From positions 172,715-236,714 of the forward strand of contig CAWFMQ010000014.1 in assembly GCA_963816905.1 (NCBI GenBank): DNA of 64,000 nucleotides, in the 5' to 3' direction. Position 1 is the stretch's first letter. Every line of letters starts with the position of its first letter. Shown here in pieces: positions 12,898 through 50,814 of the stretch. A program made the translations under genes and the position numbers. This DNA is from an uncultured Chloroflexia bacterium. Its GTDB lineage: Bacteria; Chloroflexota; Limnocylindria; Limnocylindrales; CSP1-4. Below the pieces are notes generated by a model. It saw only the letters and a list, made by a program, of their open reading frames with translations. It was not told where the DNA came from and made no database searches.

Positions 12898-14150
<1,253 letters not shown>

Positions 14151-29466: not shown

Positions 29467-29469
29467 GAC

Positions 29470-30087: not shown

Positions 30088-30467
30088 GGCCCCAGAGTCC
30101 GACTCCGGCCGTCTTCCCGACGAGCGTGTCACCAGAACAACTCCCGTACCATCCTGATCAGGAGACCACGGTAGTCCATCGTCTGGTGCCATGTCAAGCC
30201 GGCAACGGCGAGACAGCCGGCAACGGCGAGACTGTGTTGGTCGGCGACGTCGTCGACTTGGCACGGCTGCAGGGCATACTGTCGCAGGTCGGCGAACTCG
30301 GCCCGGTGCCGTCGCTCGTGAGCCGGATGGATCCCGTCCCATCTGGCCGGCCGAACCCGGCCCCGCGACGGGGCACAAACGAGAAGGGCCCCGGAGGTCG
30401 CGCAACGCCGTGATGCCGGGTGAGGTCGGAGCAACGTGATGCCACGTCGGGCAGGAGGGACGAGCGA

Positions 30468-31374
30468 GTGACGAACCAGTCGACCCCCGTGGTGCGCAGG
30501 CACGGCAACTCCTACGACATCTTCATCCTCGTCCTGACCATCATGTCGCTGGCGATCATGGTGCTCCTGCTGCTGCCCCTCGCCCCCGCGGAACTCGACA
30601 CGCTCAGGGTGTACGACAACCTCATCTGCTTCATCTTCATCGGGGACTTCCTCCTGTCCCTCTCCGGTTCGCACCCGCGCAGCGAGTACTTCATCCGGCG
30701 CCGTGGCTGGATCGACATCCTGGGATCGATCCCCAGCCTGGGCATCATCCCGGCCTTCGGGCTCCTGCGCCTCTTCCGGCTCTTCCGGCTCGCCCGCATC
30801 TCCCGCATGCTGCGCGGCCAGCGGAAGAAGGAGCTGATCAGCGACATCATCCACAACCGCAGCCAGTACGCGACGTTCATCACACTGCTGCTGGCCATGA
30901 TCGTGCTGGTGAGCTTCGAGCCTGCTCGTGCTGCAGTTCGAGAGCCGCGCGCCGAATGCGAACATCCTCACCGGCGGCGAGGCGCTGTGGTGGTCGGTCG
31001 TGACCATCACGACGGTGGGCTATGGCGACTTCTATCCGGTCACGGATCTCGGCCGGCTTGTCGCCGTCTTCGTGATGTTCGCGGGCGTCGGCATCATCGG
31101 CGCGCTGGCGAGTATCCTCGCCAGCCTGCTGGTCTCACCGGCGCCGGCGGACGAGCCCGAAGAGGCGGCCGGGGACGAGCCAGCGGCAGGCGCGGCCACG
31201 GCCGGCCAGGCGATGGTGACGGACGGTGGGGCGCAACTCGTCCCCGGCGGCATCGACACGGAACTGGCTCGGACACGCGCGGAGATGGCGCAGACCCGGG
31301 CGGAGATGGCGGAGCTGCGTCGCCAGATCGCAGCAGTGGCGGTGCCGGCGGCAAGCCAACAACAGGGATCGTGA
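30468..31374 (+). CDS. Voltage-gated-like K+ channel (ion_trans, S4 + TVGYGD filter); frameshift near 30915
   Basis: GTG 30468 with GGAGGG RBS. S4 LRLFRLFRLARISRMLRG in frame 0; pore ...WWSVVTITTVGYGDFYP... in frame 1 (ORF 30928..31374). Confidence 0.7.
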
Positions 31375-32211: not shown

Positions 32212-32442
32212 GACGAGAACCTCCCACATTCCCGGGCTCGACGAGGGCCAGGTTGCACTCGGTTGGGGTCTCAGCGGCGTACGGATTCGTGAAACCGCTC
32301 GGGAGCGTAGACGGAGTGCTGTGGCAATGCGAGTGCCAATCGGATCATTCGCGGCGGTCGCCGGGCCAGGGCGACGGCGCATCGGCGACCGCTGTGCCGC
32401 CCAGGACAGGTCAATCGCTGCTTGCCCGCCCTCGAGCCGCGT

Positions 32443-32823
32443 TCACGTGGTGCCATCGGCCGGTGGCCGGCCGGCCTGCATGGTCTCCGCCGGTGCGGAA
32501 CCTGGTGCGGCGGTGGCCTTCGCCCCACGGTAGCGCGCCTCGAAATTGTCGATCAAACGTCGCCGCTCGCGCATCACCGCGGCCCACTCGTCGAGAGCCG
32601 CCCAACCCGCCTCGGTGAGGATGTAGTCGCGGCGCTGTGGTCCCGTCGGCTCGGACGACCAGGTCGAGGCGACCTCGCCGACCGCCTCGAGGTCACGCAA
32701 GGTTTTGTAGACCTGCCCGACGTCCACGTCCTCGCCGCTGACACCCATCTCCTGCAGCTGGCCAATGAGGCCGTAGCCGTGCGCCGATCCCTCGGCAAGT
32801 AGCGCCAGCACGAAGGGCTCCAT
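32443..32823 (-). CDS. PadR family transcriptional regulator
   Basis: ...FVLALLAEGSAHGYGLIGQLQEMG...GQVYKTLRDLEAVGEV... PadR wHTH. Confidence 0.7.
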   Translation of the reverse strand: MEPFVLALLAEGSAHGYGLIGQLQEMGVSGEDVDVGQVYKTLRDLEAVGEVASTWSSEPTGPQRRDYILTEAGWAALDEWAAVMRERRRLIDNFEARYRGAKATAAPGSAPAETMQAGRPPADGTT

Positions 32824-33219
32824 CCAGCGGCGGCGTCCGCCGAGCGGCGCCCAGCCGCGATGCCTCGGCAGGCCGTCGGATTCGGGTCCGGAAGCCGGAA
32901 CGGTCGGACCGCCGACCCGAGGCCCGCCGGGTTCCCCTTCGCCATTCATATGCCGCGAGCTTATGGGCTGGGCGCGGATCTGTCGAACGAATTCGGAGGA
33001 CGGCCGCGTCGGCGGCCCGCCCGGGGCACCGGTCGAAACCGGCCACCGGCTATCGTTCGGCTCGACCGTGCAATCCCTCGTTGCTGTTTGCGATCTTCGT
33101 GGCCGTGGTGATGGCGACGATCGCCGGGCCCTCGACCCTCCCAGGTCGTTGGTTCACCAGATGACCCCCATACTCCGGCGCAGGAGCCATACGGACCTTT
33201 GGTCGGCCACGGCGGTCGG

Positions 33220-34404
33220 TCACACCCCAGGTGAGGTCCTCAGCCGGTAGGCGAAGAGCGCGATCGGCCGGTAGAGCACGTGGGCGAACTTGCCGAACGG
33301 GACCAGGATCACGAGCGCCATCGCCACCGCGACGTGTACCAGGAATACCGGGTAGCCCCAGGCCGGAGCGTCCGGCAGGTAGAGCCCGAGTTCCAGGACG
33401 AACCCGGTTACGCCGGCGACCCACAGCAGGCCCAGGAAGGACCAGTCCGAGACCGTCGACCGCGCCGATGAGCGGTCGCTGTGGCGCATCCGCCGCCAGG
33501 CCAGGATCGTCGTGCCGTAGACGAGCGCCAGGCCGGCGATCGTCCCCAGCAGGCGGACCGGGTACCAGATCGGCACCGCGGTTCCCGTCGGCTTGATTCC
33601 GGCGATCTCCAGCCCGTAATCGAGGAGCGTCGCGGCGAGCAGTCCCAGGAAACCCCACATCGTGACCGCGTGGATGAACCAGCGGCGGAGGTAGAGCGGC
33701 CGATCCTCGACCGCGTCCGTACACTCCTCGCGGAAGCGGGTCTGAGCAAGGGACTCGCGCCCGATCGAATACCAGGCGGCGTCGGCAAGGCGCCGGGCGG
33801 TTGTGCGTCGCGGCCGTGCGGCCGGCGCCTCCCCCGACGCACTCGCGGTGCCGCCGCGCCCCCGGAACATCCGCCGCGTCATCTCGACGAGGCCGGCGAT
33901 CGCGGCGATCGCGAGCACGATCAGCACGATGAGGCCCAGGTTGTGGATGAATCCCGACGGAATGAAGTCGAACAGCGCCAATGTGGAGCCATCCGTCGGA
34001 CCGCGGACCGAGTACATGAATCCGGCGAGTACCGCGATCAGCGCGGTGATGAAGATGCCGGCGAAGATCCGCGAGCTGCCGAGGAACCGTGCCAGTCGCG
34101 TTCGGTCGTAGCTGGCGACGGCGTAGCGACGCGCGGCGGCCATGAAGTCCCCGGGGTCCGCGTGCGTCGGACAGGCGTCCGAACACTCGCCGCAGCCGTA
34201 GCAGAGCCACAGCTCCGGGCTCGAGAGCAGCTGCTCCTTCATGCCAAGCTGCGCATACCGGAACATCCGGCGCGGGAACGCGCTCCCATCGGTCGAGAGC
34301 GGGCAGATCGCGGAGCACACGCCGCAGTTGAAACAGGCCGAGATGTCGCTCGCCCCGTAGTGCCTGAGGTCCGTGAGAAGGTTGCTGTCGACCTGCGCGG
34401 TCAT
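33220..34404 (-). CDS. QmoC/HdrE-like membrane subunit (N-terminal 2x[4Fe-4S] HdrC-like + C-terminal NarI/HdrE-like TM domain)
   Basis: CFNCGVCSAICP ... CYGCGECSDACP, followed by ~5 TM helices with conserved His. 4-nt overlap with the upstream small ORF. Confidence 0.7.
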   Translation of the reverse strand: MTAQVDSNLLTDLRHYGASDISACFNCGVCSAICPLSTDGSAFPRRMFRYAQLGMKEQLLSSPELWLCYGCGECSDACPTHADPGDFMAAARRYAVASYDRTRLARFLGSSRIFAGIFITALIAVLAGFMYSVRGPTDGSTLALFDFIPSGFIHNLGLIVLIVLAIAAIAGLVEMTRRMFRGRGGTASASGEAPAARPRRTTARRLADAAWYSIGRESLAQTRFREECTDAVEDRPLYLRRWFIHAVTMWGFLGLLAATLLDYGLEIAGIKPTGTAVPIWYPVRLLGTIAGLALVYGTTILAWRRMRHSDRSSARSTVSDWSFLGLLWVAGVTGFVLELGLYLPDAPAWGYPVFLVHVAVAMALVILVPFGKFAHVLYRPIALFAYRLRTSPGV

Positions 34405-34655
34405 GCGGTGGGGTCCTTTCGCTCCAGCGCCGCGTACCGGAAATAGCCTTCGTCGTTGGCGCCCTTCAACTCGTGGAGATACCCGTACCGGCGCATGCCC
34501 ATCACCCAGAAGACGACCTCGTGGGTCGGTCGGCCGAGTTCGGCAGCGATCTCCGGGACGGTCCGGGCGCCACCCTCGAGGAACCGGAGGATCCGCGCGT
34601 GCATGAGCGGCTCCTCCCGGATGACCTCACGCGGGTCCCTGTTGACGACGCTCAT
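34401..34655 (-). CDS. Small (84 aa) hypothetical protein, translationally coupled within the hdr operon
   Basis: ATG with GGAGG RBS. ATGA overlap with the hdrA stop and with the qmoC-like start. Possible wHTH-like fold; no family recognised. Confidence 0.4.
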   Translation of the reverse strand: MSVVNRDPREVIREEPLMHARILRFLEGGARTVPEIAAELGRPTHEVVFWVMGMRRYGYLHELKGANDEGYFRYAALERKDPTA

Positions 34656-36493
34656 GCCACTGCCTCCGGGACCAGGCTCACCTTGCGGACCGTGTTCTTG
34701 ACGCTGTGCGAATTCCCGGGCTCGTGCGGGGAGGTCGGGAGGGGGGCCTGCCCCCCTCCAGCCAACTTGTCGATCATCGCGGTGATCTGGGCGCTGGTGT
34801 AGCCCAGCAGGTCGATCGCGTCCTCCGGACACACCGGGACGCAACCGCCGCACCCCTTGCAGCCGGCAGCGGCGATGGACGCGATATCGCGGCCGTTCAG
34901 CCACAGCTTCTCGATGGCGCCGTACGGGCAGGCGTCGACGCACTTCCCGCACCATGTGCAGGCATCTGGGTCGACGATCGCCACGAGCGGATCGAGCTCG
35001 GCCGTGCCCTTCTTGAGGACGGCGGCGCTCTGGGTGACCGCCGCAAGGCCGGAAGCAATCGCCTCCGTCGAGTTCTTGGGTCCCTGGCAGGTCCCGGCGA
35101 TCAGCACGCCTTCCACCATCGTCTCGACCGGGCGCAGCTTGGGATGGATCTCGCTGTAGAACCCGTCCGTGCCGAGCGGCAGCTTGAGGAGGCCCGTGAG
35201 CCCCTCGTTCTTCCGCGGCACCATCCCCGTGACCAGTACGACCAGATCCGCCGGGATCGCGAGCTCTTCCCCGCCGGTCAGGAGGTCCTTGACGGTGACC
35301 ACCAGGCGTCCGGCAGCGTCCCTGGCGACCGCAGGGGGCGCGTCGTCCGGGTACTTCACGTAGACGGCACCGCGCTTCCGCGACTCCGTGTACAACAGCT
35401 CGAACTTGCCGTAGGTGCGGACGTCGCGCGCGAGGTGGTACTGGTGGACCTTCGCATCCAGGTCGGCGACCTTGATCGACGCGTGTGCCGTGGCGGCACA
35501 GCAGTAGCGCGAGCAATACTCGTTGGAGCCCGGTTCGCCCGCCGGTTGCCGGCTGCCGACGCAGTAGATGTAGACGACGTTGCGGACGGGCTTCCCGCGG
35601 TAGCGGAGCGAACCGCTCGAACCGTCGACAAGCTCCTTGAACTCGGGCAGGGTCACGACACCGTCGATGCCGTAGCCGAACTCGCCGTCCGCCGGCTGGT
35701 AGGTGTCGAAGCCGGTGGCCACGACCACCGAACCGACCTCGACCTGGACCGTCTCGGGCGTCCCGCCGTCGATCCGGATGCCGGCGGTGTAGTTGCCGAA
35801 GCTGCCGGACCTGCTGACGACCTCGGCGCTGGTGAAGACCGTAACGCGCGGGCGCCTGGCGATCTCGTCCTGCAGCCTCGCCACGAGCGCATGGCCGTCC
35901 TTGCCGTTGGGATACATTTCGCCGAACCCGCCGACCCAGCCGCCGAGTGCCTGCTCGCGTTCGACCAGGAAGACCTCGAGCCCGATGTCGGCGAGTCCGA
36001 CCGCAGCCCGCATGCCCGCGATGCCGCCACCGATGACGAGCGTCCGCGGGGTGGTCTTGACTTCGATCGGCTCAAGCGGGGTCGTCAGCCGCGTCCGCGC
36101 GATCCCGGCCTTCAGCAGGCAGATGGCTTTGCCTGTTGCGCCGGGACCGTCGTCCGTATGGGCCCAGGAGCACTGCTCCCGCACGTTGACCTGCGTGTAC
36201 TCGAACGGGTTGAGCCCGGCCCGCTTGGCCGCGCCGCGGAACGTGTGGACGTGCAGCTTGGGCGAGCACGAGGCGACGACGAGCCCGTCGAGCCCCTGCT
36301 CCTCGATGTCCGAGACGATCTGCTGCTGCCCGGCGTCGGAGCAGGCGAACATGGTCGACCGGGTGACCACGACGTCGGGGTTGTCGCTGACGGCGGCCAC
36401 GACCTCGTCGACATCCACGTAGTCGGAGATGTTGCCGCCGCAGTGGCAGACGTAGACGCCGATCCGGCGTTCGCCGGTGGGTTGCTCGGTCAT
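34652..36493 (-). CDS. hdrA: Heterodisulfide reductase subunit A-like flavoprotein (HdrA/QmoA-B family), full length
   Basis: N-terminal Cys domain IGVYVCHCGGNI...VNVREQCSWAH; FAD fold LVIGGGIAGMRAA; ...CSRYCC...; C-terminal CTWCGKCVDACP/CKGCGGCVPVCP ferredoxin. Start ATG 36493 overlaps the upstream stop (ATGA). Confidence 0.85.
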   Translation of the reverse strand: MTEQPTGERRIGVYVCHCGGNISDYVDVDEVVAAVSDNPDVVVTRSTMFACSDAGQQQIVSDIEEQGLDGLVVASCSPKLHVHTFRGAAKRAGLNPFEYTQVNVREQCSWAHTDDGPGATGKAICLLKAGIARTRLTTPLEPIEVKTTPRTLVIGGGIAGMRAAVGLADIGLEVFLVEREQALGGWVGGFGEMYPNGKDGHALVARLQDEIARRPRVTVFTSAEVVSRSGSFGNYTAGIRIDGGTPETVQVEVGSVVVATGFDTYQPADGEFGYGIDGVVTLPEFKELVDGSSGSLRYRGKPVRNVVYIYCVGSRQPAGEPGSNEYCSRYCCAATAHASIKVADLDAKVHQYHLARDVRTYGKFELLYTESRKRGAVYVKYPDDAPPAVARDAAGRLVVTVKDLLTGGEELAIPADLVVLVTGMVPRKNEGLTGLLKLPLGTDGFYSEIHPKLRPVETMVEGVLIAGTCQGPKNSTEAIASGLAAVTQSAAVLKKGTAELDPLVAIVDPDACTWCGKCVDACPYGAIEKLWLNGRDIASIAAAGCKGCGGCVPVCPEDAIDLLGYTSAQITAMIDKLAGGGQAPLPTSPHEPGNSHSVKNTVRKVSLVPEAVA

Positions 36494-39196
36494 GCCGGCA
36501 CCTTCAGCCCTTCCAGGTGTGCTGCCGCCCCCGCGACCGCCGCACCCGCGTGGAGGATCGAGTCGGTGATGTCTCGCGCGCCCGCCGCAGCACCGGCCAC
36601 GAACACGCCGGGAATGCTGGTTCGGCCGGGACTCAGGTCCTCGTCGGGTTCGCCGACGTAGCCGTACTCGTCCGGGGCCAGGGCGTTCAACGGGAAGAGG
36701 CCTTCGGCGTCGTGGTTCGGCTGGACGCCGACCGCCAGGACGACCAGGTCGTACTCGGCGTCGACGAGCGCCCCGCCTCCCTCGATGTCCTCGTAGCGCA
36801 GGACGAGGTTGCCGTCGTCCTTCTCGGTGACCTTTGCGACGCGCCCCTTGATGTAGTTGGCGCCCATGGACTTCGCGCCCTCGTAGAACTCGTCGTAGCG
36901 CTTGCCGGCCGCCCGGATGTCCATGTGGTGGACGGTGACGTCGGCGAGCGGCAGGGCGCCCATGATCAGCTGGTTCTGCTTCACGGAGTACATGCAGCAG
37001 AACTTGGAGCAGAGCGGGTTGTCCACGGTTTCGTCGCGTGAGCCGGTGCACATCACGTAGGCGATGCGCTCGGGCACCTTGCCGTCGCCGGGCCGCAGGA
37101 CGGTGTTGAAGGGCCGGGTCGGCGCCAGCAGGCGGTCCATCTGCATGCCGGTGATGACGTTCTTGTATGTCCCGAACCCGTACTGCGGCTTGAGGTCCGC
37201 ATTGAAGAGCTTGAAGCCGGTGGCCACGACCACCGCGCCGACCTGGACGTCGAACTCGTGTTCCCGCATCCGCAGGTCGATGGCGTAGGCCGGGCACGCG
37301 GTGATGCACTGCCCGCACTCGGAGCAGACGCCGCAGTCCAGGCAGCGCCCGGCACCCGCCAGTGCCTCCTCCTCTGTCATCGGCGGCTCGAGCTCGAGGA
37401 AGCCGGCCGGGCTGCCGACCACGGCCGCCGCGATGGCGGCCGGTCCATCGACGTGCGTGTAGGTCGTCTGCCGCGCCAGCACCTTCTGCTTGTCCGCAAT
37501 CGGCAGCGGGAGGTCGAACCCCGTCAGGGCCTCGCCGCGGAGCCAGCGGTCGAGCATGAACGCCGCTCGGCGCCCCTGGCCGACGGCCTGCGCGATGTCC
37601 GACGCACCCGTGACGACATCGCCCGCCGCAAACACCTCCGCCACCTCGGTCTGCAGCGTCCCGCGATCGACCCTGATCGTGGAGTTGCCGTTGACCTTGA
37701 GCCGCCCGGCGAACGCGACCGTGTCGGGCGTCATGCCGATCGCGACGATCACGGCGTCGCAGTCGATGACGAACTCGCTGTTGGGGATCGGTTCGGGCCG
37801 CCGACGGCCGGAGGCGTCGGGCCGGCCGAGACGCATGCGGGCGCACCGGAGGCCGGTCACGCGACCCGTCGGCCCCGCCGACGACCTCGACCGGGGCGAC
37901 CAGGAACTCGAAACGGACGCCCTCCAGCTCGGCGTCGTGGACCTCGGGGCCGTGCGCCGGCATCTCCTCGCGACCGCGGCGATAGGCCACTCGCGTTTCC
38001 CGGCGCACCGAGCCGGAGTGCGGTCCGCGCCGCGTCCATGGCGACGTTGCCGCCACCGACGACGACAACGCGCTTCCCTGCCAGGTCGGCGGGCCGGTCG
38101 AGCTTGACCGCGCGGAGGAACTCGAGGCCGGACAGGACGCCGGCGCGCTCCTCGCCCGGGACGCCGAGGCTCGTCGAAAGCGGAGTGCCGGTCGCCAGCA
38201 GGACCGCGTCGTAGCCCGCGGCGCGCAGGTCTTCGACATCCTCGACCGGGCGTCCGTGGCGATCTCCACGCCGAGCGCCGTGACGTTCGCGATGTCCTGC
38301 GCCACGACTTCCGGTGGCAGGCGGTAGCCCGGAATGGCGAGGCGGAGGAATCCACCCGGCTCCGACGCCGACTCAAAGATCTTGACCCTGTATCCCTTGC
38401 GCGCCATCTGCCAGGCGGCGGTCAGCCCGGTCGGGCCGGAGCCCACCACGGCCACCGACTTCCCGTTCAGGGGCGGCGGCTCGATGCCGGGCCCGTCTGC
38501 TCCCGCGTAATGCCGGTCCGCGACGAACCGCTTCAGGCGGCGGATCGGCAGCGTGCCCTCGAGGCTGCCCCGCGTGCACTCGCTCTCGCACGGCGCGTAG
38601 CAGGCACGACCCAGCGTGCCGACGAGCGGCGTCGCATCCAGCACCAGCTGGAACGCCTTCTCGTATTCCCCGCTGCGGATCAGCGAGACGTACCCGTGGG
38701 CCCTGATGCCCGCCGGGCAGGTGAAGCTGCACGGCGATTTCCCGTCACGCTCGATGACCGCCTTCTTGGGCACTGCCTGCGGGAACGCGATGTACGCCGC
38801 CCGGCGGGCCACCAGGTCCGCGTTGAACTGGTCCGGCACCGCGACCGTGCAGGCCTGCTCACACAGCTGGCAGCCGGTGCAGGCCGCCTCGTCCACGTAG
38901 CGCGGCTTCTGGCGCACGGTGGCGTGGAACCGGCCGTCCCCGTCGGGCGTGATCCCACGGACCTCGCTGTAGGTGAGCGCCGTGATGTTCGGGTGGTGAA
39001 TGGTGCCCGCCATCTTCGGCGTGGAGATGCAGCTGGCGCAGTCCAGGGTCGGGAAGACCTTGCTGAGCAGGATCATCTTCCCGCCCACGCTGGCTTCCTT
39101 CTCCACGAGCAGCACCTTGTAGCCCATGTCGCCGAGCTTCAGCGCGGACTCCATGCCGCCGATTCCGGCGCCGACGACCAGGACGTCGTACTCCAT
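36490..39196 (-). CDS. HdrA-like protein whose ferredoxin-insert region carries a GltD/NfnB-like NAD(P)H-binding module; >=3 frameshifts
   Basis: HdrA N-part (MEYDVLVVGAGIGG...FPTLDCASCIS...HPNI...CTGCQLCEQAC...YIAFPQAVP) runs directly into a GltD-like module (CPAGI...LIRSGEYEKAF...GRACYAPCESECTRG...VAVVGSGPTGLTAA...VAYRRGREEMPA...AAGDVVTGASDIAQAVGQGRRAA). The HdrA C-part follows (CLDCGVCSECGQCITACP...VVVATGF...CTGSRDE...CSKFCC...). The pieces are spread over three frames. Confidence 0.65.
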
Positions 39197-39199
39197 CGC

Positions 39200-39643
39200 T
39201 CAACTCACTTCGGACGGCCCGAGCTGGGCCAGCGCGTCCGAGAACTGCTGCATGTGCCGGGTGAACTGCTCGGCGCAGACGGAACAGATGGCGGCCATCC
39301 GCACGCGTGACGGCGCATGGCCGCGTTCCTTGAGCAGCGCCTGCGACTCGGCCATGATTCGGGAGGCGCGGTGGGCGCAGTCCGGGAGATAGGCGCATTC
39401 GTCGCCGTCCGAGGCGACGAACACGCCGTCGAACCCACGCTCGATGGCGCGCAGGATCCAGGCCGGCTTGATGCCGCTGGTGCAGGGCAGCCCGATGACC
39501 ACGACGCCGGGCGAGTAGTGCATGTGGGCACTTCCCGCAAGGTCGATGCCGGGGTCCGAGATGTTGTTGGTGGAGAAGACCAGGATCCTCGGGGCGGATC
39601 CCGACCCTCGCTCCGGCGCCACGGGGACGGCGAGCGCGCTCAT
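39200..39643 (-). CDS. mvhD: MvhD/FlpD-like protein (methyl-viologen-reducing hydrogenase delta subunit family)
   Basis: ILVFSTNNISDPGIDLAGS...VVVIGLPCTSGIKPAWILRAIERGFDGVFVASDGDECAY. RBS AGGAG. Stop overlaps the downstream start. Confidence 0.8.
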   Translation of the reverse strand: MSALAVPVAPERGSGSAPRILVFSTNNISDPGIDLAGSAHMHYSPGVVVIGLPCTSGIKPAWILRAIERGFDGVFVASDGDECAYLPDCAHRASRIMAESQALLKERGHAPSRVRMAAICSVCAEQFTRHMQQFSDALAQLGPSEVS

Positions 39644-39731
39644 CGGGTCATGGCTCCTGACTGCGTGTCGTTGGGAGAAATGGGCGGAGGCCGTTGGTGG
39701 CGGCGCTCCGCCCGGGGGTCGTATCCGGTGG

Positions 39732-39995
39732 CTACTTCCCGCGGCGGACGAACACGCGGTCGTAGCCCTCAGCCTGGAGGGAGCCGAGGAACGCGTGGCC
39801 GACCTTCGCGGACCAGGCGCCGATGTCCGTCTTGGTGACGGGATCGGTTGACCAGATCTCGATGACAGAGCCGATGGGCACGGTGCCCATGCCCTTCTTG
39901 GCCTCGAGCAGCGGGCCGGGGCAGGCGGCGCCGCGCGCGTCGATGACCTTGGCGACGACGATGGTCTCGAGCTCGGGTGCGGTTGCGATTGCCAT
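39732..39995 (-). CDS. tusA: TusA-family sulfurtransferase (CPxP motif)
   Basis: 87 aa; ...IDARGAACPGPLLEAKKGMG... Confidence 0.8.
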   Translation of the reverse strand: MAIATAPELETIVVAKVIDARGAACPGPLLEAKKGMGTVPIGSVIEIWSTDPVTKTDIGAWSAKVGHAFLGSLQAEGYDRVFVRRGK

Positions 39996-40013
39996 TGCGG
40001 TCTCCTTTGGGGT

Positions 40014-40376
40014 TCAGTAGGTAAGGACGTTGGTGGCCGAGGTGACCTCGGCGACAAAGCGGCCGGCGGCGACGATCTCCGCGCCCTCGATGAGCGCGTC
40101 CGCGCCGATTTCGCGGCTCTTGAGACACGGCGAGCACACGAGCAACTTCCCGCCGAGTTCGCGGAAGTCGCCGAACAGCCTGGCCAGCGGCGGGAACCCG
40201 GCGGCCTCGACCATCTCGATGGTGCCGGCGCGGGCGAGGAGGACACCGTCCGCCTGGAGGCCGACGACGACCTCGACGTCCGAGGCCAGTGCGGCGGCGG
40301 CCATCACGAACGGGATCGTCACGTGCTCCGGGTGGTCCGGGCCGTGCGTGACCATGAATACGAGCTTCTCTGCCAT
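40014..40376 (-). CDS. DsrE/DsrF-like family protein (DsrE3-type)
   Basis: MAEKLVFMVTHGPDHPEHVTIPFVMAAAA...LLVCSPCLKSREI...; ~120 aa. Confidence 0.75.
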   Translation of the reverse strand: MAEKLVFMVTHGPDHPEHVTIPFVMAAAALASDVEVVVGLQADGVLLARAGTIEMVEAAGFPPLARLFGDFRELGGKLLVCSPCLKSREIGADALIEGAEIVAAGRFVAEVTSATNVLTY

Positions 40377-40408
40377 GAATGTGTCCGTCTCCGGGTGCGA
40401 ATGACCGA

Positions 40409-40819
40409 TCAGATGAAGAGGAGCTGGCCGTCGTCGGCACTCAGGAAGAACGTCGCGACACCGCTGACGCCGTCCACGACCGGATCCAGCTGGGACGGTT
40501 CGAGCTTCAGCAGGTCCATCGAAGCCGAGCAGGCCTGGATGTTCACCTCGCCGAGTTCCTTGACCTGCCGGAACGTGTCCAGCCACTGGAGGGCGGCCGG
40601 GACCTTCTGGTCGACGAGCTGCCGGTCGGCGGGTCCCGCCTCCGCGGAAAGGCCACGGGCGTGGCCGGCGCGATCGGTTCGGAACGCGTCGAGTGCCCAG
40701 AACTGGAGCAGGACGTTGACCGGCTTGCCCAGTGCCGCGGCGCCGGCGGCGAGGATCGCGGCGGCCTGGAGCTTGTCGTCGGTGCCGGAGAAGAGAACGA
40801 GCGAGAGCGTGTCTGACAC
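40409..40819 (-). CDS. DsrE/TusD-like family protein
   Basis: 136 aa; ...LSLVLFSGTDDKLQAAAILAAGAAALG...IQACSASMDL... DsrE-fold pattern. Confidence 0.6.
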   Translation of the reverse strand: MSDTLSLVLFSGTDDKLQAAAILAAGAAALGKPVNVLLQFWALDAFRTDRAGHARGLSAEAGPADRQLVDQKVPAALQWLDTFRQVKELGEVNIQACSASMDLLKLEPSQLDPVVDGVSGVATFFLSADDGQLLFI

Positions 40820-40828
40820 GGGGCGGCC

Positions 40829-41188
40829 TCAGCTATGAACGGCGGTGGGTTGTGGTGGGGCGCTGCATGCGGCGGCCAGGTCGCCGAGCCGCGAGATCTG
40901 GCGGAGGAGGACCTGCCGCATCAGCTCGCAGGCATCGACGACGCCGCCGTCGGTCAGCTGGTAGCGGACCTCGCGCCCGGTGCGGACGGCCTCGACGAGC
41001 CCCGCCGCACGAAGCGCCGCCAGGTGGCGCGACGCGGCCGGCTGCGGGATCTCGAGGTGATCGGCGAGCCGGCCGACCTCCCACGGTCCGTCCGCGAGGA
41101 GGTGCACCATCTCGAGCCGGCGCGGATTGGCGAGGGCCATCAGGACGGCGGCCTGCAGGGCGTAGATGTCGTCCACGGGTCGGAACAC
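40829..41188 (-). CDS. ArsR/SmtB family transcriptional regulator (first gene of hdr/tusA operon)
   Basis: ...NPRRLEMVHLLADGPWEVGRLADHLEIPQPAASRHLAALRAAGLVE... Confidence 0.7.
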   Translation of the reverse strand: MFRPVDDIYALQAAVLMALANPRRLEMVHLLADGPWEVGRLADHLEIPQPAASRHLAALRAAGLVEAVRTGREVRYQLTDGGVVDACELMRQVLLRQISRLGDLAAACSAPPQPTAVHS

Positions 41189-41236
41189 GTGCGGCTCCCC
41201 GGCAATTCGGCGCGCGACGTCGCAGCGATCGAGGGC

Positions 41237-41729
41237 TCAGAGCTCGACGCGCGCCGCGTGGTCCAACGCGACCACGAGGCCCTCGGCCGCGCTTCTCGTC
41301 GAGGTTGTGCTCGAGGATCGGGATGTAGAGCGATTCCTCGCGCAGGTGGACCTTGAGGATCGAGTACAGGCGATACAGGACCCGGGTAAGCTCGATCAAT
41401 TCGGCGCCCGGCGCGCCGGGTTTCACCAGGCGGTCCGACAGGTCGCCGAGTTGCGCAATGAGCCTTCGGATCTCGGCGTGCTCCCGCTCCATCGGTGCCA
41501 TCGCGAGCCGGCAGGACAGCAACCGGTCCAACTCGGGATGCACGGCCGCCTCGACCGCTTCCATGTGCGGCAGGAGCGTCGTAACGAGGAACTCGTGCTC
41601 CGATGCGACCTTTGCCGCGAGATCCTCTCGAGGCAGGTCGCCAACTGCGTCTGCGAGCCGGCGCAGCTCCTCCACGTGGGCCATCAACCGCTCACGATGC
41701 TCTGTCGAAACCTGGGTCAGAGTCGGCAT
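41237..41729 (-). CDS. Hemerythrin-like (HHE cation-binding) domain protein; apparent frameshift near the C-terminus
   Basis: ...LLPHMEAVEAAVHPEL...MEREHAEIRRL...LYRLYSILKVHLREESLYIPILEHNL... The terminal ~18 aa lie in another frame. Confidence 0.55.
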
Positions 41730-42043
41730 GGCCGAGCCTCCTGTCGTGATCGCGAGGCGAGCCGTTCGCCGTCGCGAGCTTGGTCGTACATGGCGGCAGC
41801 TGTCATAGTTGCGATGCTGCTATATGCCTCCGGACACTATACCCCAGATGTCAACGCCTGACATAGGTGTCTCCGCGCCGCGGGCACGCCCGGCGTCATC
41901 GAGCGGCACGCTGGGCTGGGCGCGTGCTCGCGATCGATCGAGAGCCCGCCGCGATCGCTGCCGCGGAGGCAACGACCCCATCTCACCGCCTTCGCCGCTT
42001 GAGTCTGCGGCTCAAGCGGCGGTTGCAGATGCAGCCGGCAGCT

Positions 42044-43156
42044 CTATCCAGACGGTCGCACCACCCTCGGGCTGATTCTCGCCCCGACTCGCCCGCCGTG
42101 CGCCTCGACGAGTGCCCGCACGATCGACAGGCCAAGCCCGCTCGTTCCCGTCCGTCGATCCCGCGACGGATCGGCCTGGTAGAGGCGATCGAACACCCTC
42201 GGCAGGTCCTCCGGCGCGATGCCGCTGCCAGAGTCGTCGACGGCGATCCGGACGCGAGATCCGAGCCGGTGCGCGGTGATACCCACTCGGCCGCCGCGCG
42301 GGGTGTGCCGCAGGGCATTGTCCGTCAGGGCCGCCAGGACCTGCCGGAGTCGGTCGGGATCAGCGTCGACGACGCAGCCGGGCTCGATGTCGGCCGATAT
42401 CCGGATCTCCTCCGCCATCGCCCGCGCCTCGAACGCCGCAACGTCAGCGTCGGCCATCTCGGCGACATCGACCGGTTGGCGCTGGAGTAGCAACTCGCCC
42501 GCCTCGGCGAGACTGATCGTCCGCAGCTCGTCGACGATCCGGCTGAGCAGCTGCGTTTGTTCCCGGATCGTTCGCATGTATCGCACGTCCGGCGCGAAGA
42601 TCCCCTCCTCGATCGCCGCTGCCGTGCCCTCGATGACGGTGAGCGGCGTACGCAACTCGTGCGCAGCGTCCTGCATGAACCGGCGGCGCTGTGCGTCGGC
42701 CCGTTGCAGGTCGGCGGCCATCTCGTCGAACGACCGCCCGACTTCGCCGAACTCATCGCCCCGATCACCGAGCCCAGACCGACGGCTGAGTTGGCCCAAT
42801 GCCACCGCGCGCGAGGCGTGGGCGAGCTGGGTGAGGGGCCGCGCCATCCGATTGGCAGCGAAGAAGCCGACCAACGAGGCGGCGAGCGCGGCCGCCAGCG
42901 CCAGCCCGATGAGCGTCACGGTGGTGTCCTGCTGCACCTGGGCGGCGTGGATGCCTGCCCCCGGTCCGGGACCGGGGCCGTTCCCTCGCCCCTGGCCAGG
43001 TCCGCGTCCGCTGGGTACCGGGGCCTGGCTGGCCGTCTCCGACTCCAGCAGCGCGAAGCCCCTGCCGACGATCTGCGGCGTCCCGATCGAAACGACCGCG
43101 GCGGTAGCGAGCGCGACGGCAGCGAAGCCCAGGGCGATCTTGACGCGGAGGCTCAC
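42044..43156 (-). CDS. Sensor histidine kinase (HAMP-HisKA-HATPase_c)
   Basis: Two TM helices; HELRTPL H-box; G1/G2 boxes. GTG start overlaps the response-regulator stop. Confidence 0.8.
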   Translation of the reverse strand: MSLRVKIALGFAAVALATAAVVSIGTPQIVGRGFALLESETASQAPVPSGRGPGQGRGNGPGPGPGAGIHAAQVQQDTTVTLIGLALAAALAASLVGFFAANRMARPLTQLAHASRAVALGQLSRRSGLGDRGDEFGEVGRSFDEMAADLQRADAQRRRFMQDAAHELRTPLTVIEGTAAAIEEGIFAPDVRYMRTIREQTQLLSRIVDELRTISLAEAGELLLQRQPVDVAEMADADVAAFEARAMAEEIRISADIEPGCVVDADPDRLRQVLAALTDNALRHTPRGGRVGITAHRLGSRVRIAVDDSGSGIAPEDLPRVFDRLYQADPSRDRRTGTSGLGLSIVRALVEAHGGRVGARISPRVVRPSG

Positions 43157-43848
43157 GTGCCGTCCGTGGCTCGGGACGCGCGGTATCCGACGCCGCGCAC
43201 CGTCTCGATGTATGCGCCACCGTCCGGCCGCGGACCGAGCTTCGCCCGCATGTTCTTCACATGGCTGTCGATCGTACGGTCGAGCGATTCGAACGATTGC
43301 CCGAACAACTGCTCGCCGATCTGCTCGCGCGTCCACGCACGGCCAGGTTGCGCGACGAGGGTCGCCAGGAGATCGAACTCTGTCCGGGTGAGGGGCAGGA
43401 TCTCGCTGCCGCGTCGCGTCTCGCGGGCAATCGGATCGACCACGAGGTCGAAGTGGGTCAGCACGGCGTCGACGACCGGTCGCTCGAGCCGTCGCAGCAC
43501 AGCCCCCACTCTTGCGACGAGCTCGCGCGGTTCGAACGGCTTGGTGACGTAGTCGTCGGCGCCGAGCTCGAGCCCGGCGACTCGATCGATGACATCGTCT
43601 CGCGCCGTGAGCAGGATCACCGGGACCACCGATCCGGCCGAGCGAAGTGCTCGCAGCACATCGAAACCGGACCGTCGAGGAAGCATGACGTCGAGGACGA
43701 GCAGGTCGGGGTGGGCCCCCTGGGCGACGGCGATTGCCGCGTCGCCGTCTGCGGCGGTGAGCACCTCGTACCCCTCGCGCTCGAGGTAACCGCGCACGAA
43801 CTCGACGATGTGCGGCTCGTCGTCCACGACGAGGATCCGGGCATGCAT
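43153..43848 (-). CDS. OmpR-family response regulator
   Basis: MHARILVVDDEPHIVEFV... receiver + winged-helix ...YIETVRGVGYR... Confidence 0.85.
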   Translation of the reverse strand: MHARILVVDDEPHIVEFVRGYLEREGYEVLTAADGDAAIAVAQGAHPDLLVLDVMLPRRSGFDVLRALRSAGSVVPVILLTARDDVIDRVAGLELGADDYVTKPFEPRELVARVGAVLRRLERPVVDAVLTHFDLVVDPIARETRRGSEILPLTRTEFDLLATLVAQPGRAWTREQIGEQLFGQSFESLDRTIDSHVKNMRAKLGPRPDGGAYIETVRGVGYRASRATDGT

Positions 43849-43921
43849 TGGCTCAGCATAGGCGGACGGCCGGACCCGCAGAGGCCCGACCGTCCGACCA
43901 GATGTGACGGTTCGCGTTGGA

Positions 43922-44449
43922 TCAGTGATGCGCGGGTCCGTGCGGTCCGGTGCCGTCGCAGTCGCCGGGTCCGGGGCCGCCGGTACCGGCGCCGGATCCA
44001 TCACGGGCCCGCGTCCTGTCGCGGTTGGCCGAGGCGCCCTGTGGGCCGGCGCCGACGGCAGCGCCCTGCATGCCACTGGGCGCCGTGCTCGATACCGCCG
44101 TCTGAGCGCGGGACTGGAGCTGCGTCCGCAGTTGCGCCGCCTGCGCGTCGGTGAGCGCGCCGTTTGCGACGCGCGCCTGGATGCGGCTGGTCCACTGCGT
44201 GACGAGCGCGTCGACAACCTTCTGGACCGCGACCTTCTGGCGCGCGGCGATCTGGGCGAGGCTCAGGTTCTCGTGGCGAAGCTCGCGGATCTGGGCGTCG
44301 CTCAGGCCGAGGACGGAGGCGACTGTCCCGCCCGACGTCGCGCTCGGCGAGGACGTGGGAGCGGCCGTGGGGCTCGCGGCGGCGACCGACGCGGCGAAGA
44401 GGAGGGAACCCAATACGGTGCCGCCGATCGCGGCCATCATCCTGCGCAT
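43922..44449 (-). CDS. Secreted hypothetical protein upstream of the two-component system
   Basis: Signal peptide MRRMMAAIGGTVLGSLLFAASVAAASP; Gln/Ala-rich helical region; Gly-rich C-terminus. Confidence 0.45.
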   Translation of the reverse strand: MRRMMAAIGGTVLGSLLFAASVAAASPTAAPTSSPSATSGGTVASVLGLSDAQIRELRHENLSLAQIAARQKVAVQKVVDALVTQWTSRIQARVANGALTDAQAAQLRTQLQSRAQTAVSSTAPSGMQGAAVGAGPQGASANRDRTRARDGSGAGTGGPGPGDCDGTGPHGPAHH

Positions 44450-44713: not shown

Positions 44714-45094
44714 ATGAAGGTGGGGATGAGCCACTCGAACAGTCGGGACCCTGAGCAATACCGACTCCACGCTGAGGTATGCAGAGTCCTGACAGACCCC
44801 AAGCGGTTGATGCTCCTCGAGATCCTGCGCGACGGCGAGCGGTCGGTCGGCGAGCTCGCGAACGAGCTGGGCAGCACACTCGCCAACACGAGCCAGCACC
44901 TGGGCGTCATGCGATCCGCCGGGCTCGTAGAAACGCGCCGGAACGGAACGACCATCGTCTACCGGCTCGCGGAGCCCGAGATCGTCGAGGCCTGCGACGT
45001 CATCCATCGCATCGTCGACCGTCGCCTGGCGACGCGAACCGGAGCCCGCCGGCGGTTCGAGCCGGCCGTGTCAGCCGGCAGCACACCGAGGTGA
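44714..45094 (+). CDS. ArsR family transcriptional regulator
   Basis: ...LTDPKRLMLLEILRDGERSVGELANELGSTLANTSQHLGVMRSAGLVE... Confidence 0.75.
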   Translation: MKVGMSHSNSRDPEQYRLHAEVCRVLTDPKRLMLLEILRDGERSVGELANELGSTLANTSQHLGVMRSAGLVETRRNGTTIVYRLAEPEIVEACDVIHRIVDRRLATRTGARRRFEPAVSAGSTPR

Positions 45095-45777: not shown

Positions 45778-45790
45778 CAGGAGAAGGGTC

Positions 45791-46090
45791 ATGTCCAACC
45801 AGGTCCAACCGCTCGGCAGCCGGGTCCTCGTACGCCTCCTGCCGGAAGAGAGCGTGACCAAATCCGGGCTCTACCTCCCAGACACCGCGAAAAGAGAAGC
45901 CGCAGCGCGGTGAGGTCGTGGCGATCGGCGACGAAACGACAACGATCAAGGTCGGCGTCGGAGACAAAGTCCTGTTTCCCGAATACACGGGAACCGAGGT
46001 CCGGATCGAGGGCGAGGATCACCTGATCATCGATGGCACGGAGCTGCTGGCCACTCTCCGGGACGCCCCGGTTGCCGTTGCCGTCGTCTG
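45791..46090 (+). CDS. groES: Co-chaperonin GroES (frameshift in an A-run at ~45893)
   Basis: MSNQVQPLGSRVLVRLLPEESVTKSGLYLPDTAK then a +1 shift, ...EKPQRGEVVAIGD...EYTGTEV.... The indel sits in an AAAA homopolymer. No groEL follows. Confidence 0.65.
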
Positions 46091-50791: not shown

Positions 50792-50814
50792 TGACACCTC
50801 CTTGTGGTGGTGGG

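Follow-up and report, generated by a model that had tools for sequence, protein, structure and literature searches.

The minus strand of the window, the 64,000-nucleotide stretch of DNA analyzed here, carries 10 co-directional genes between positions 41729 and 33220, as delineated by ORF translations, codon-position GC, and Pfam and NCBIfam scans. Listed in their order along that strand, together with a promoter-like site upstream and a regulator gene downstream, the features are as follows.

41836..41864, minus strand: sigma-70-like promoter match upstream of the hemerythrin gene (9/12 consensus positions; a consensus match only)
41237..41729, minus strand: hemerythrin-domain gene (Pfam PF01814, E = 1.2e-8), with one indel near 41298
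40829..41188, minus strand: ArsR/SmtB-family regulator, 119 aa (HTH_5, E = 3.8e-15)
40409..40819, minus strand: DrsE_2-family sulfur carrier, 136 aa (PF13686, E = 2.5e-14)
40014..40376, minus strand: DsrE-family sulfur carrier, 120 aa (PF02635, E = 2.7e-16)
39732..39995, minus strand: TusA sulfur carrier, 87 aa (PF01206, E = 4.7e-17), Cys in a CPGP motif
39200..39643, minus strand: stand-alone MvhD/FlpD iron-sulfur subunit, 147 aa (PF02662, E = 1.6e-28)
36490..39196, minus strand: QmoA-like HdrA of the "HdrL" type, reconstructed 902 aa, with an NfnB/GltD NAD(P)H-FAD-2x[4Fe-4S] module inserted in the ferredoxin domain
34652..36493, minus strand: QmoB-like (second) HdrA, 613 aa, with N-terminal Cys-rich, FAD, and C-terminal 2x[4Fe-4S] ferredoxin domains
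34401..34655, minus strand: conserved, Cys-free, winged-helix-like protein, 84 aa (HTH_20, E = 0.003)
33220..34404, minus strand: QmoC-like membrane subunit, 394 aa, with an HdrC-like 2x[4Fe-4S] domain and a NarI/HdrE-like membrane domain
32443..32949, minus strand: PadR-family regulator (PF03551, E = 2.1e-14), 270 nt downstream of the operon

Operon organization and frameshifts

From arsR to qmoC, three junctions are ATGA overlaps and four are gaps of 3, 9, 18, and 32 nt; an 88-nt gap separates tusA from mvhD. The initial annotation had placed these nine genes in this order on one strand, as we also find, with the hemerythrin gene just outside the unit. Its position is correct, but because it is co-directional with arsR, lies only 48 nt upstream of it, is preceded by the sole promoter-like site found in 32300-42300, and keeps the same position in the closest relative (locus L001), the transcription unit probably comprises 10 genes, beginning with hemerythrin. 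The PadR gene, whose family recurs as a neighbor in 11 loci, is probably a separate transcription unit.

Reconstructing HdrL takes three frame changes (near 38249, 38003, and 37865), all within 385 bp; the hemerythrin gene takes one, and its true C terminus (...DHAARVEL*) sits in another frame, and identity with the L001 hemerythrin is 75% through residue 144. Such clustering might be expected if the operon were a decaying pseudogene cluster in which the hdrL frameshifts are real, a reading that we consider improbable: two of the three hdrL indels lie in or beside short C runs, the out-of-frame segments still match L001 at 76% identity and show neither stops nor decay, and GC3 stays at 0.82 to 0.97 throughout the true frame. 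The relatives include Microflora Danica (MFD) MAGs, which are presumably long-read assemblies; this kind of error would fit such an origin. Since the GroES and K+ channel genes of the window are split in the same manner as the hemerythrin gene, and since L001 carries an intact 902-aa protein with which HdrL is collinear at 76 to 90% identity, the frameshifts almost certainly stem from indels in the assembly, not from biology, and the organism most likely has an intact operon.

Sulfur carriers and redox subunits

HMM scans of the individual ORFs agreed with the sulfur-carrier, MvhD, HdrA, and QmoC-like assignments made initially. TusA and the DsrE-family carriers of the window each have an intact active-site Cys, and the DsrE protein is 83% identical to its L001 counterpart. 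Among related loci, DsrE-family genes are present in 69/81, with the active-site Cys invariant in all 92 proteins. TusA is encoded in 58 of the 60 loci that have 6.5 kb or more of upstream DNA, and the signature D-A-R-x3-C-P-G-P-L-L-x-A-K-K shows little or no variation across 59 TusA proteins linked to the cluster. The carriers thus truly belong to the system and are conserved with it, as first suspected. MvhD and a second HdrA each occur in 59 of the 60 loci and an upstream arsR gene in 31. The ArsR protein of the window, which has one conserved alpha5 Cys, passes the NCBIfam HTH_metalloreg cutoff (80.5 bits; cutoff, 55) and falls below that of the BigR model (51.5 bits; cutoff, 155).

MvhD, with a C-terminal CxxC conserved in 63/65 proteins, aligns with the FlpD domain at the C terminus of canonical QmoB. 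HdrL is composite: residues 150 to 631 match NfnB-like modules and residues ∼620 to 895 match HdrA, as does the N terminus (residues 5 to 151, matching HdrA 146 to 291 and including the FPTxDCxxC motif). HdrL also matches Pyr_redox_2 (E = 2.7e-46), Fer4_20 (E = 3.1e-16), and the HdrA2 model (448 bits). Matches to PRK12771 (462 bits) and to NfnB/StnA-like structures (342 to 382 bits) confirm the NAD(P)H-binding module. The second HdrA matches HdrA 5odc_A (E = 2.8e-113) in two stretches, the best of which begins at HdrA residue 313, and the NCBIfam HdrA2 model only at profile positions 1 to 228; its identity to canonical QmoB is 28% over residues 11 to 574. It has no fused MvhD. Initially described as full length, it does have the N-terminal Cys domain but lacks the inserted ferredoxin domain and so is not. 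The two paralogs are complementary, each accessory HdrA domain occurring once in the pair: the N- and C-terminal ferredoxin domains in the QmoB-like HdrA and the inserted one in the QmoA-like HdrA.

The 84-aa ORF family is found in 61/81 loci, always between hdrA and qmoC or hdrC; the protein (AF2 model pLDDT, 73; winged-helix/Zalpha matches weak and not significant) is presumed to be a structural subunit. The QmoC-like protein matches HdrC structures (E = 1.7e-13) and has eight invariant Cys (C24/27/30/34 and C68/71/74/78), three invariant His (H245, H357, and H375), and a nearly invariant H154. The membrane anchor proposed at the outset is therefore supported, and the conserved His, as candidate heme ligands, fit a diheme b quinone-reactive module.

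Distribution of the gene family

The core tusA-mvhD-hdrA-hdrA-small-qmoC recurs in about 10 or more phylum-level groups, carried by MAGs of Chloroflexota, Actinomycetota, Bacteroidota, Acidobacteriota, Desulfobacterota, Spirochaetota, NC10, Planctomycetota, and Latescibacteria. The same order in dozens of independent contigs indicates that the operon is real and not a chance arrangement. No cultured carrier was found; the operon is part of a gene family that is widespread among uncultured bacteria and apparently never studied. An actinobacterial origin, suggested by the markers noted initially, is unproven: the most closely related operons come from Chloroflexota/Limnocylindrales MAGs, and named matches of one flanking gene are divided between Actinomycetota and Chloroflexi.

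Three architectures are seen: short HdrA with QmoC, long HdrL with QmoC (as in the window), and long HdrL with soluble HdrC and HdrB. The NAD(P)H module, although present here, is optional, as 39/60 loci have the short HdrA; likewise, the window has no CCG/HdrB protein, but sister loci with HdrC and HdrB in the place of QmoC show that the family is not strictly HdrB free. Among HdrC/HdrB-terminated loci with enough upstream DNA, 24/24 keep arsR-tusA-mvhD-hdrL-hdrA-small; TusA is thus associated with the core, not with the terminal module.

Sulfur-handling neighbors in the window and its relatives include a rhodanese, two TauE proteins, a TehB/TPMT-like methyltransferase, and OsmC; in L001, cytochrome bd lies directly 3' of qmoC. 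A flank census (145 ORFs) recovered regulators, DsrE, rhodanese, and PEMT and no Apr, Sat, Dsr, Sox, hydrogenase, or formate dehydrogenase. As the 64-kb window also has no AprA, AprB, or HdrB homolog and no CCG motif, we see no alternative terminal enzyme.

Proposed function

On balance, judging from gene content and sequence, we favor reading the locus as a most likely intact operon for a membrane redox complex of the Qmo type that is devoted to sulfur-carrier proteins and not to APS reductase. Most likely, this complex would act as a reversible oxidoreductase that connects menaquinone and NAD(P)H with sulfane sulfur bound to TusA/DsrE, with direction and catalytic site inferred; action on protein-bound persulfide, as first suggested, would be plausible, though genes that stay together need not encode proteins that bind each other or exchange electrons. 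The HdrA heterodimer would move electrons among three poles: the menaquinone pool, reached via QmoC; NAD(P)(H), reached via the NfnB-like module (ferredoxin instead in the short variant); and TusA/DsrE-held sulfane sulfur. The HdrA-type flavin would permit bifurcation or confurcation. With textbook potentials of about −74 mV for menaquinone, about −270 mV for S0/HS−, and −320 mV for NAD(P)H (Thauer 1977), sulfide/persulfide would fit as the mid-potential bifurcation partner. For this organism we favor the reductive direction, in which rhodanese and DsrE would load persulfide, e.g., from thiosulfate or polysulfide, onto TusA, and the complex would turn TusA persulfide into sulfide using NAD(P)H and menaquinol. 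In reverse, which is thermodynamically equally attractive, sulfide would be oxidized onto the carrier, and menaquinone and NAD(P)+ would share the electrons; the direction is a guess that rests on lineage-specific neighbors. The ArsR-family repressor probably governs expression. Variants with HdrC/HdrB have the one known disulfide-reducing site in the place of QmoC, so carrier-bound sulfur may be the HdrB substrate there, without an equivalent site in QmoC-type complexes.

The window subunits contain no recognized S-S catalytic site, no CCG/HdrB protein, and no identified dedicated substrate site. Together with the classic bifurcation type of all redox modules (HdrA, NfnB/StnA-like) and the persistence of the core while the NfnB insert and terminal module vary, the missing S-S site would suit a general bifurcating or confurcating NAD(P)H/ferredoxin:menaquinone oxidoreductase, FixABCX- or Nfn-like, that has no sulfur substrate; TusA and DsrE would then be merely co-regulated, a sulfur source for Fe-S cluster maturation, or regulatory partners. 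We regard this as unlikely, given the adjacency of TusA with its family-specific invariant signature across many phyla, the DsrE-family genes with intact active Cys, and the recurrent rhodanese in the flanks. To our knowledge, TusA and DsrE are not normally employed in generic Fe-S maturation.

Comparison with known systems

Subunit for subunit, the complex mirrors QmoA, QmoB, and QmoC of the canonical aprBA-qmoABC loci (L084/L085), with TusA/DsrE genes standing where aprBA adjoins qmoABC. That shared plan, the "QmoC" name sometimes given to homologs by JGI pipelines, and a full-length match to the NCBIfam qmoC model (positions 4 to 358 of 360; E = 1.9e-59) would be consistent with an ordinary QmoABC whose APS reductase partner is encoded elsewhere in the genome and which works in sulfate reduction or sulfite oxidation. 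We give that little credence: the qmoC score, 202 bits, is below the cutoff of 300, identity to canonical QmoC is 27 to 29%, TusA-linked QmoC proteins form a clade apart, and aprBA is adjacent in 0/81 loci. The second HdrA scores 383 bits with methanogen HdrA versus 181 bits with QmoB; by sequence, the window proteins resemble methanogen HdrA more than canonical Qmo. Among the hosts are MAGs of Acidobacteriaceae, Bacteroidales, and Limnocylindrales, groups that, as far as we know, are not sulfate reducers.

Least credible to us is an sHdr-type sulfur-oxidizing system, in which TusA/DsrE3 would deliver sulfur for oxidation to sulfite. The anchor and MvhD are not, as far as we know, among shdr core genes, and the sHdrA (6tjr) match is distant (110 to 139 bits). 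TusA and DsrE carriers and an ArsR-type regulator do resemble shdr loci (PMC11094781), and TauE sulfite exporters lie nearby, but defining features are missing: HdrB/CCG proteins in the window and, among the operon genes, a second HdrC and a lipoate-binding protein. We rejected this identity, in line with the initial view of a Qmo-like rather than canonical sHdr architecture.

The HdrA/GltD fusion co-located with MvhD has already been named HdrL (PMC2702500), and the whole composition, initially not recognized as a described system, has no description that we found in the searchable literature. Organisms that lack Apr/Dsr have been reported to carry a "type II Qmo" lineage, its function left open, and AprAB is known to be served by QmoABC or QmoAB-HdrCB (PMC10504309); the exchange of QmoC for HdrC/HdrB in the present family parallels that pair.

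Operon layout and gene content

The window has a GC content of ~70%, and genes were therefore called from third-codon-position GC and ORF translations. Both trace one uninterrupted coding track on the minus strand, from 41729 to 33220, and Pfam and NCBIfam scans of the translations confirm the gene list and gene order proposed in the initial annotation.

Genes of the operon, in order
Gene 1, 41237-41729 (-): hemerythrin, PF01814 (Pfam)
Gene 2 (-): ArsR/SmtB regulator (Pfam/NCBIfam scan)
Gene 3 (-): DrsE_2-family protein (Pfam/NCBIfam scan)
Gene 4 (-): DsrE-family protein (Pfam/NCBIfam scan)
Gene 5 (-): TusA, Cys within a CPGP motif
Gene 6 (-): stand-alone MvhD/FlpD (Pfam/NCBIfam scan)
Gene 7, 36490-39196 (-): HdrL, 902 aa, with a glutamate-synthase-small-subunit/NfnB-like module embedded in HdrA
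Gene 8, 34652-36493 (-): HdrA2, 613 aa, with a Cys-rich domain at the N terminus and a di-cluster ferredoxin domain at the C terminus
Gene 9, 34401-34655 (-): small protein, 84 aa, weak helix-turn-helix match
Gene 10, 33220-34404 (-): QmoC-like protein, 394 aa, matching NCBIfam qmoC over its full length (E = 1.9e-59; 202 bits, below the cut-off of 300)

The junctions comprise three ATGA overlaps, gaps of 3 to 32 nt (3 nt between mvhD and hdrL), and a single gap of 88 nt. The sole promoter-like match sits 5' of the hemerythrin gene, which is probably the first gene of the operon. A terminator scan of the operon region returned no terminator-like site, a result of little meaning at 70% GC.

Directly 5' of the operon, the same strand encodes a HAMP/HisKA histidine kinase and an OmpR-type response regulator (42047-44217, -). 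Seven more sulfur-related or paralogous genes are scattered over the window.

Sulfur-related and paralogous genes outside the operon
24278-24688 (+): rhodanese
48482-49204 (+): TauE exporter
50821-51879 (-): second TauE exporter
49830-50831 (-): TehB/TPMT-like methyltransferase
44759-45028 (+): second ArsR
56532-56825 (+): weak DsrE-like ORF
63608-63997 (+): second hemerythrin

This methyltransferase and a PEMT/ICMT-like protein of related loci are candidates for the methylation of sulfide or thiols. The window also encodes a RES-domain protein (28840-29469, -; PF08808, E = 7e-15), the RES domain being the toxin half of toxin-antitoxin pairs. An ORF of ~396 aa (15623-16810, -) has a hydrophobic N-terminal stretch and several internal repeats of ~90 residues, whose hallmark is a motif close to VRIFARPxTGGxLTPxYAAxxSPLYPVGTG. 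One tRNA gene and no rRNA were found in the window.

Frame changes and extra codons in hdrA2

Three frame changes fall inside 385 bp of hdrL (near 38249, 38003, and 37865), and the hemerythrin gene changes frame near 41298, its true C terminus lying in another frame. The GroES gene (45790-46088, +) and a voltage-gated-type K+ channel gene with a TVGYGD pore (30420-31371, +) are likewise split across two reading frames. We considered that the operon might be pseudogenized and rejected this, since the GroES and K+ channel genes are split too and the out-of-frame segments are undecayed: by tblastn, all four hdrL pieces are collinear with the intact orthologue of L001, the locus of the closest relative, at 76 to 90% identity, and the reconstructed HdrL of 902 aa has exactly the length of that orthologue. 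Assembly indels best explain the frame changes, given that cells normally require GroES and that the segments out of frame have not decayed. The assembly as a whole is prone to indels, and annotations of the contig that rely on ORFs will be broken into fragments.

The C terminus of HdrA2 has ~35 additional codons compared with L001 (613 aa versus 576 aa; 34652-34775). They hold a perfect GC-rich palindrome, GGAGGGGGG-CAGG-CCCCCCTCC, at 34738-34759. The palindrome occurs in a single copy in the window, which led us to reject a repeated element; the segment may be a small in-frame insertion or an intragenic hairpin element.

Anatomy of the redox subunits

The two HdrA proteins divide between them what methanogen HdrA (5odc_A) carries on one chain, namely, N-terminal, TrxR-like FAD, inserted ferredoxin, and C-terminal ferredoxin domains. 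HdrA2 aligns with 5odc_A (E = 2.8e-113) in two stretches that omit the inserted ferredoxin domain (residues ~229 to 312). HdrL matches only HdrA residues 146 to 291 and 289 to 565; it thus has neither the N-terminal domain nor the C-terminal ferredoxin domain (residues 1 to 145 and ~566 to 654 are missing), and it keeps the FPTxDCxxC flavin-site motif. From these complementary gaps, the two paralogues jointly hold one copy of each HdrA accessory domain.

Between the HdrA segments of HdrL (residues 5 to 151 and 620 to 895) lies a module of ~480 residues (~150 to 631) that aligns along its whole length with NfnB/StnA-like chains (9bov_A, 382 bits; 8oh5_C, 342 bits; NfnB 4ylf_B, 282 bits). It contains the Rossmann motif GGGNVAMDAAR followed by YRR, a combination that, from what is known of GltD and NfnB, we take to fit NADPH binding.

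Over its N-terminal 100 residues, the QmoC-like protein matches structures of HdrC (E = 1.7e-13). Across 18 aligned, diverse homologues, the two CxxCxxCxxxCP motifs and three histidines (His245, His357, and His375) do not vary, and His154 is close to invariant. By this residue pattern, the protein is expected to bind two [4Fe-4S] clusters and, by inference, two haems b. QmoC-type complexes have no recognized catalytic site for S-S chemistry. For the 84-aa protein, a single-sequence AF2 model (pLDDT 73; Foldseek matches in the PDB at E = 0.6 to 2) suggests no more than a winged helix; a DsrD-like identity was unsupported and was rejected.

Sulfur carriers and regulator

Beside the hdr genes, Pfam identifies TusA and two DsrE-family proteins. 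The signature DARxxxCPGPLLxAKK is invariant in cluster-linked TusA proteins, and the catalytic Cys does not vary among the DsrE-family neighbors (92/92). The DrsE_2-type protein scores 26.6 bits against NCBIfam DsrE2, below the cut-off of 210, and the DsrE-type protein matches no NCBIfam family.

The ArsR protein exceeds the cut-off of the generic family and scores 51.5 bits against NCBIfam BigR, below the cut-off of 155. Regulators of the BigR/SqrR type have conserved α2 and α5 cysteines that form a di- or tetrasulfide, and this two-Cys pattern is typical of persulfide sensors. The window ArsR and its close relatives have only the α5 Cys, and neither the paired cysteines nor the equivalog score of that type was found in the window protein. 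The α2 Cys is added just in regulators of more distant loci, where the pair is no more than suggestive of persulfide sensing.

Distribution and conservation

A QmoC-anchored scan of one genome per species returned at least 599 pattern-matching stretches, of which at least 592 were confirmed, and the best 80 were examined. All of these 80 come from MAGs, labeled as Chloroflexota, Actinomycetota, Bacteroidota, Acidobacteriota, Desulfobacterota, Spirochaetota, NC10, Planctomycetota, Latescibacteria, and Ignavibacteria. Most of the sources are uncultured Chloroflexota, Acidobacteriota, Bacteroidota, Desulfobacterota, and other lineages, recovered from soil, peat, wetland, and sediment. QmoC-like proteins form ~1,500 clusters at 90% identity and bear the pipeline labels "ferredoxin," "nitrate reductase gamma subunit," or "QmoC." A search for cultured carriers with a Syntrophaceae QmoC-like query matched metagenomic or MAG proteins only.

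The membrane protein has its best homologues in Chloroflexota "Limnocylindrales" MAGs, at no more than 78% identity, and the closest contig, L001, has a ten-gene order identical to that of the window. Limnocylindrales MAGs share the order arsR-dsrE-tusA-mvhD-hdrL-hdrA-small-qmoC, followed by genes for rhodanese, OsmC, methyltransferases, and more TusA and DsrE proteins. In L001, genes for cytochrome bd subunits I and II and two CydDC-like ABC-transporter genes lie directly 3' of qmoC on the same strand (11291-17210); the corresponding position in the window is occupied by a PadR gene and a gene for a membrane protein.

Among 60 loci with at least 6.5 kb of upstream DNA, drawn from the best ranked of the at least 592 and mapped by tblastn, TusA is present in 58, MvhD in 59, a second HdrA in 59, and ArsR in 31. 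By ORF clustering, 61 of 81 loci encode the small protein and 69 have DsrE-family genes. The initial annotation had named a neighborhood search in Actinobacteria/Chloroflexi MAGs for HdrA, GltD-like, MvhD, QmoC-like, and DsrE3-TusA genes; in these 60- and 81-locus counts, HdrA, MvhD, TusA, and DsrE-family genes recur beside QmoC across many phyla.

When 145 ORFs flanking diverse related loci were scanned with Pfam, the hits included LysR, sigma-54 activator, ArsR, and PadR regulators, together with DsrE/DrsE_2 proteins, rhodanese, PEMT-like methyltransferases, and small Nitro_FeMo-Co proteins; none of the 145 encodes an Apr, Sat, Dsr, or Sox protein, a hydrogenase, or a formate dehydrogenase. 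The small Nitro_FeMo-Co proteins (PF02579) flank four of the sampled loci. Anaerolineae-type loci have LysR regulators instead of ArsR.

Three architectures of one family

The long HdrA, with the NfnB insert, was found in 20 of the 60 loci and a short HdrA of ~430 aa, without it, in 39. Within one taxon, TusA, DsrE, and QmoC are ~65 to 75% identical to those of L001 throughout, whereas in short-type loci of the same taxon MvhD and the HdrA paralogues fall to 30 to 50%. The neighbor-joining tree of QmoC tracks taxonomy, not the long or short type. Thus, we conclude that two deep types of cytoplasmic module have been swapped on a conserved background of anchor and carriers.

One long-type cluster, found in a Thermoleophilia MAG (L082), is terminated not by QmoC but by a 104-aa HdrC-like protein and a 325-aa HdrB-like protein with a CCG domain (PF02754, E = 3.5e-11). 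The latter, used as a query against metagenomes, returned 80 contigs, 24 of them with enough upstream DNA; the order arsR-tusA-mvhD-hdrL-hdrA-small-hdrC-hdrB is present in 24/24, and drsE_2 lies 3' of hdrB in most. At six loci, one in a MAG and the others on five metagenome contigs, the HdrC/HdrB long-type cluster adjoins a short-type QmoC cluster on the opposite strand, which suggests that the paired clusters cooperate.

Loci with paired clusters
L082, 13986-20996 (-)
L088, L101, L105, L108, and L144

Proposed function

At the level of sequence, the data establish the parts list and the conservation of cofactor residues and of the TusA and DsrE active-site cysteines, as well as the near-obligate linkage of TusA to an MvhD-HdrA-HdrA-small-protein core whether the terminal module is QmoC or HdrC plus HdrB. 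By analogy with aprBA-qmoABC and aprBA-qmoAB-hdrCB, this terminal module would join the core to the quinone pool or to the thiol/disulfide pool, with TusA/DsrE standing in for the redox partner. The NfnB insert would contribute NAD(P)(H); the short form, with its ferredoxin domain uninterrupted, presumably works with ferredoxin through that domain. We lean slightly toward the sulfur carriers being the redox partners of the complex. Reduction of TusA persulfide to sulfide may be the direction of the reaction, favored only weakly. The rhodanese, the two TauE exporters, the TehB/TPMT-type methyltransferase, OsmC, and hemerythrin of the window or its relatives and the cytochrome bd of L001 suggest reactive-sulfur handling in this lineage.

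Approximate potentials are -74 mV for menaquinone, -270 mV for S0/HS-, and -420 mV or lower for ferredoxin, with NAD(P)H at -320 mV; these values make carrier-bound sulfide or persulfide a natural mid-potential partner for bifurcation or confurcation of the HdrA type. The complexes might represent an unrecognized class of flavin-based bifurcating enzyme, with TusA-carried sulfide or persulfide as the mid-potential substrate, menaquinone (QmoC) or a disulfide (HdrCB) as the high-potential sink, and NAD(P)+ (NfnB insert) or ferredoxin (short form) as the low-potential acceptor, a proposal that we consider unlikely as it stands. Run in reverse, a reaction of this kind would permit sulfur respiration by confurcation. 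Were it correct, it would add a new energy-conserving link from the sulfur cycle to pyridine-nucleotide and ferredoxin pools in many uncultured bacteria of soil, peat, and sediment.

If the complex acts on TusA-bound sulfur, it would open a new path for reducing sulfane sulfur or oxidizing sulfide without recourse to Dsr, Apr, Sox, sHdr, or SQR, and marker-gene surveys limited to those pathways would overlook it. The label "QmoC" on these proteins could lead to false inferences of sulfate reduction. To our knowledge, the mechanism of Qmo, confurcation especially, is still unsettled, and the family offers natural variants for its study, which differ in the presence of the NAD(P)H module and in having either QmoC or HdrCB.

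Comparison with known systems

All component families and the Qmo-like plan are already known. New are the near-obligate coupling to TusA/DsrE in place of AprAB; the small extra subunit, the unfused MvhD, and the optional NfnB insert; and the alternation of QmoC with HdrCB together with the wide spread in uncultured lineages. No description of the cluster was found in the searchable literature, a scope outside which most subscription journals fall, so a prior mention is possible; it is not treated in PMC8528874, PMC12142623, PMC10553843, PMC13293266, PMC12998232, or bioRxiv 2021.08.23.457424. To this extent, the initial view that the composition is not a described system holds, but one part of it has a name: the fusion of HdrA to a glutamate synthase small subunit, with an NADH site and a co-located mvhD, is the HdrL of Desulfobacterium autotrophicum (PMC2702500). 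The window protein, a GltD/NfnB-type fusion with mvhD adjacent, fits that definition. The D. autotrophicum HdrL proteins are soluble, some with selenocysteine, and are encoded beside dsr or fdh genes (PMC2702500), whereas the window fusion sits in a QmoC-anchored, TusA-linked operon. In NfnAB/Stn transhydrogenases, NfnB is a free subunit; here, it is an internal insert in the HdrA ferredoxin domain.

The MvhADG-HdrABC complex of methanogens (PDB 5odc) is the best structural match for both HdrAs and the HdrC-like domain, and it shares a stand-alone MvhD and the conserved FPTxDCxxC flavin-site motif. The present system has no hydrogenase and no HdrB, distributes the HdrA accessory domains over two paralogues, and fuses the HdrC-like domain to a quinone-reactive membrane domain.

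The sHdr systems (PMC11094781) share TusA and DsrE-family carriers, an ArsR-type regulator, and adjacent HdrA-like genes. The window operon differs in lacking HdrB1/B2, the HdrC1/C2 pair, and LbpA and in having a membrane anchor, MvhD, and the NfnB module. A CCG or HdrB protein hidden elsewhere in the window was considered and rejected: no CCG motif turned up in a regex search of all six frames of the window, tblastn with an HdrB-like query found no HdrB homologue there, and neither PF02754 nor LbpA-type (lipoate-binding) domains occur among the ten operon proteins. The absence of HdrB/HdrC CCG-domain proteins reported earlier is thus borne out by regex, tblastn, and Pfam, and with it the assignment as Qmo-like rather than canonical sHdr.

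Canonical Qmo, of sulfate reducers and Chlorobi, is the presumed link between the menaquinone pool and a cytoplasmic sulfur redox partner. Like the window operon, QmoABC comprises a short HdrA, a long HdrA that begins with a Cys domain, an MvhD module, and a QmoC that combines an HdrC-like di-cluster domain with a NarI/HdrE-like membrane domain; the window subunits correspond one to one to QmoA, QmoB (plus a separate MvhD), and QmoC. Two distant relatives, L084 and L085, carry the canonical arrangement [sat]-aprB-aprA-qmoA-qmoB-qmoC, with MvhD/FlpD fused to the C terminus of QmoB. In the window, by contrast, mvhD is separate, 5' of hdrL, and HdrA2 ends after its ferredoxin domain; there is an additional 84-aa subunit, the QmoA counterpart has an NfnB/GltD insert, and TusA/DsrE are the neighbors where canonical QmoABC has aprBA. 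An aprBA pair elsewhere in the window was rejected, as no AprA or AprB homologue was found in the 64 kb; none was found in the flanks of 81 related loci either. Identity to canonical QmoC and QmoB is 27 to 29%, and in the neighbor-joining tree TusA-linked QmoC proteins form a clade separate from L084 and L085. Both HdrAs score higher against 5odc_A than against Qmo (HdrA2, 383 bits versus 181 for QmoB; HdrL core, 323 bits versus 149 to 153 plus 82 to 92 for QmoA), an approximate comparison, since the programs differ.

"Type II" Qmo, of Ammonifex degensii and Vulcanisaeta moutnovskia, is nearer to typical hdrA than to bacterial qmoAB and is found in organisms with or without Dsr/Apr (PMC10504309). 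The present family resembles it, by description only, in its HdrA-nearer proteins and in having no adjacent aprBA; the TusA/DsrE linkage, small subunit, NfnB insert, and three architectures go unmentioned for it in the parts of PMC10504309 consulted. The QmoAB-HdrCB arrangement of Gram-positive sulfate reducers shows the same exchange of QmoC for HdrC plus HdrB as the TusA-linked family. Unlike in QmoAB-HdrCB, the swap in this family occurs in clusters free of aprBA, and the window itself represents the QmoC form.
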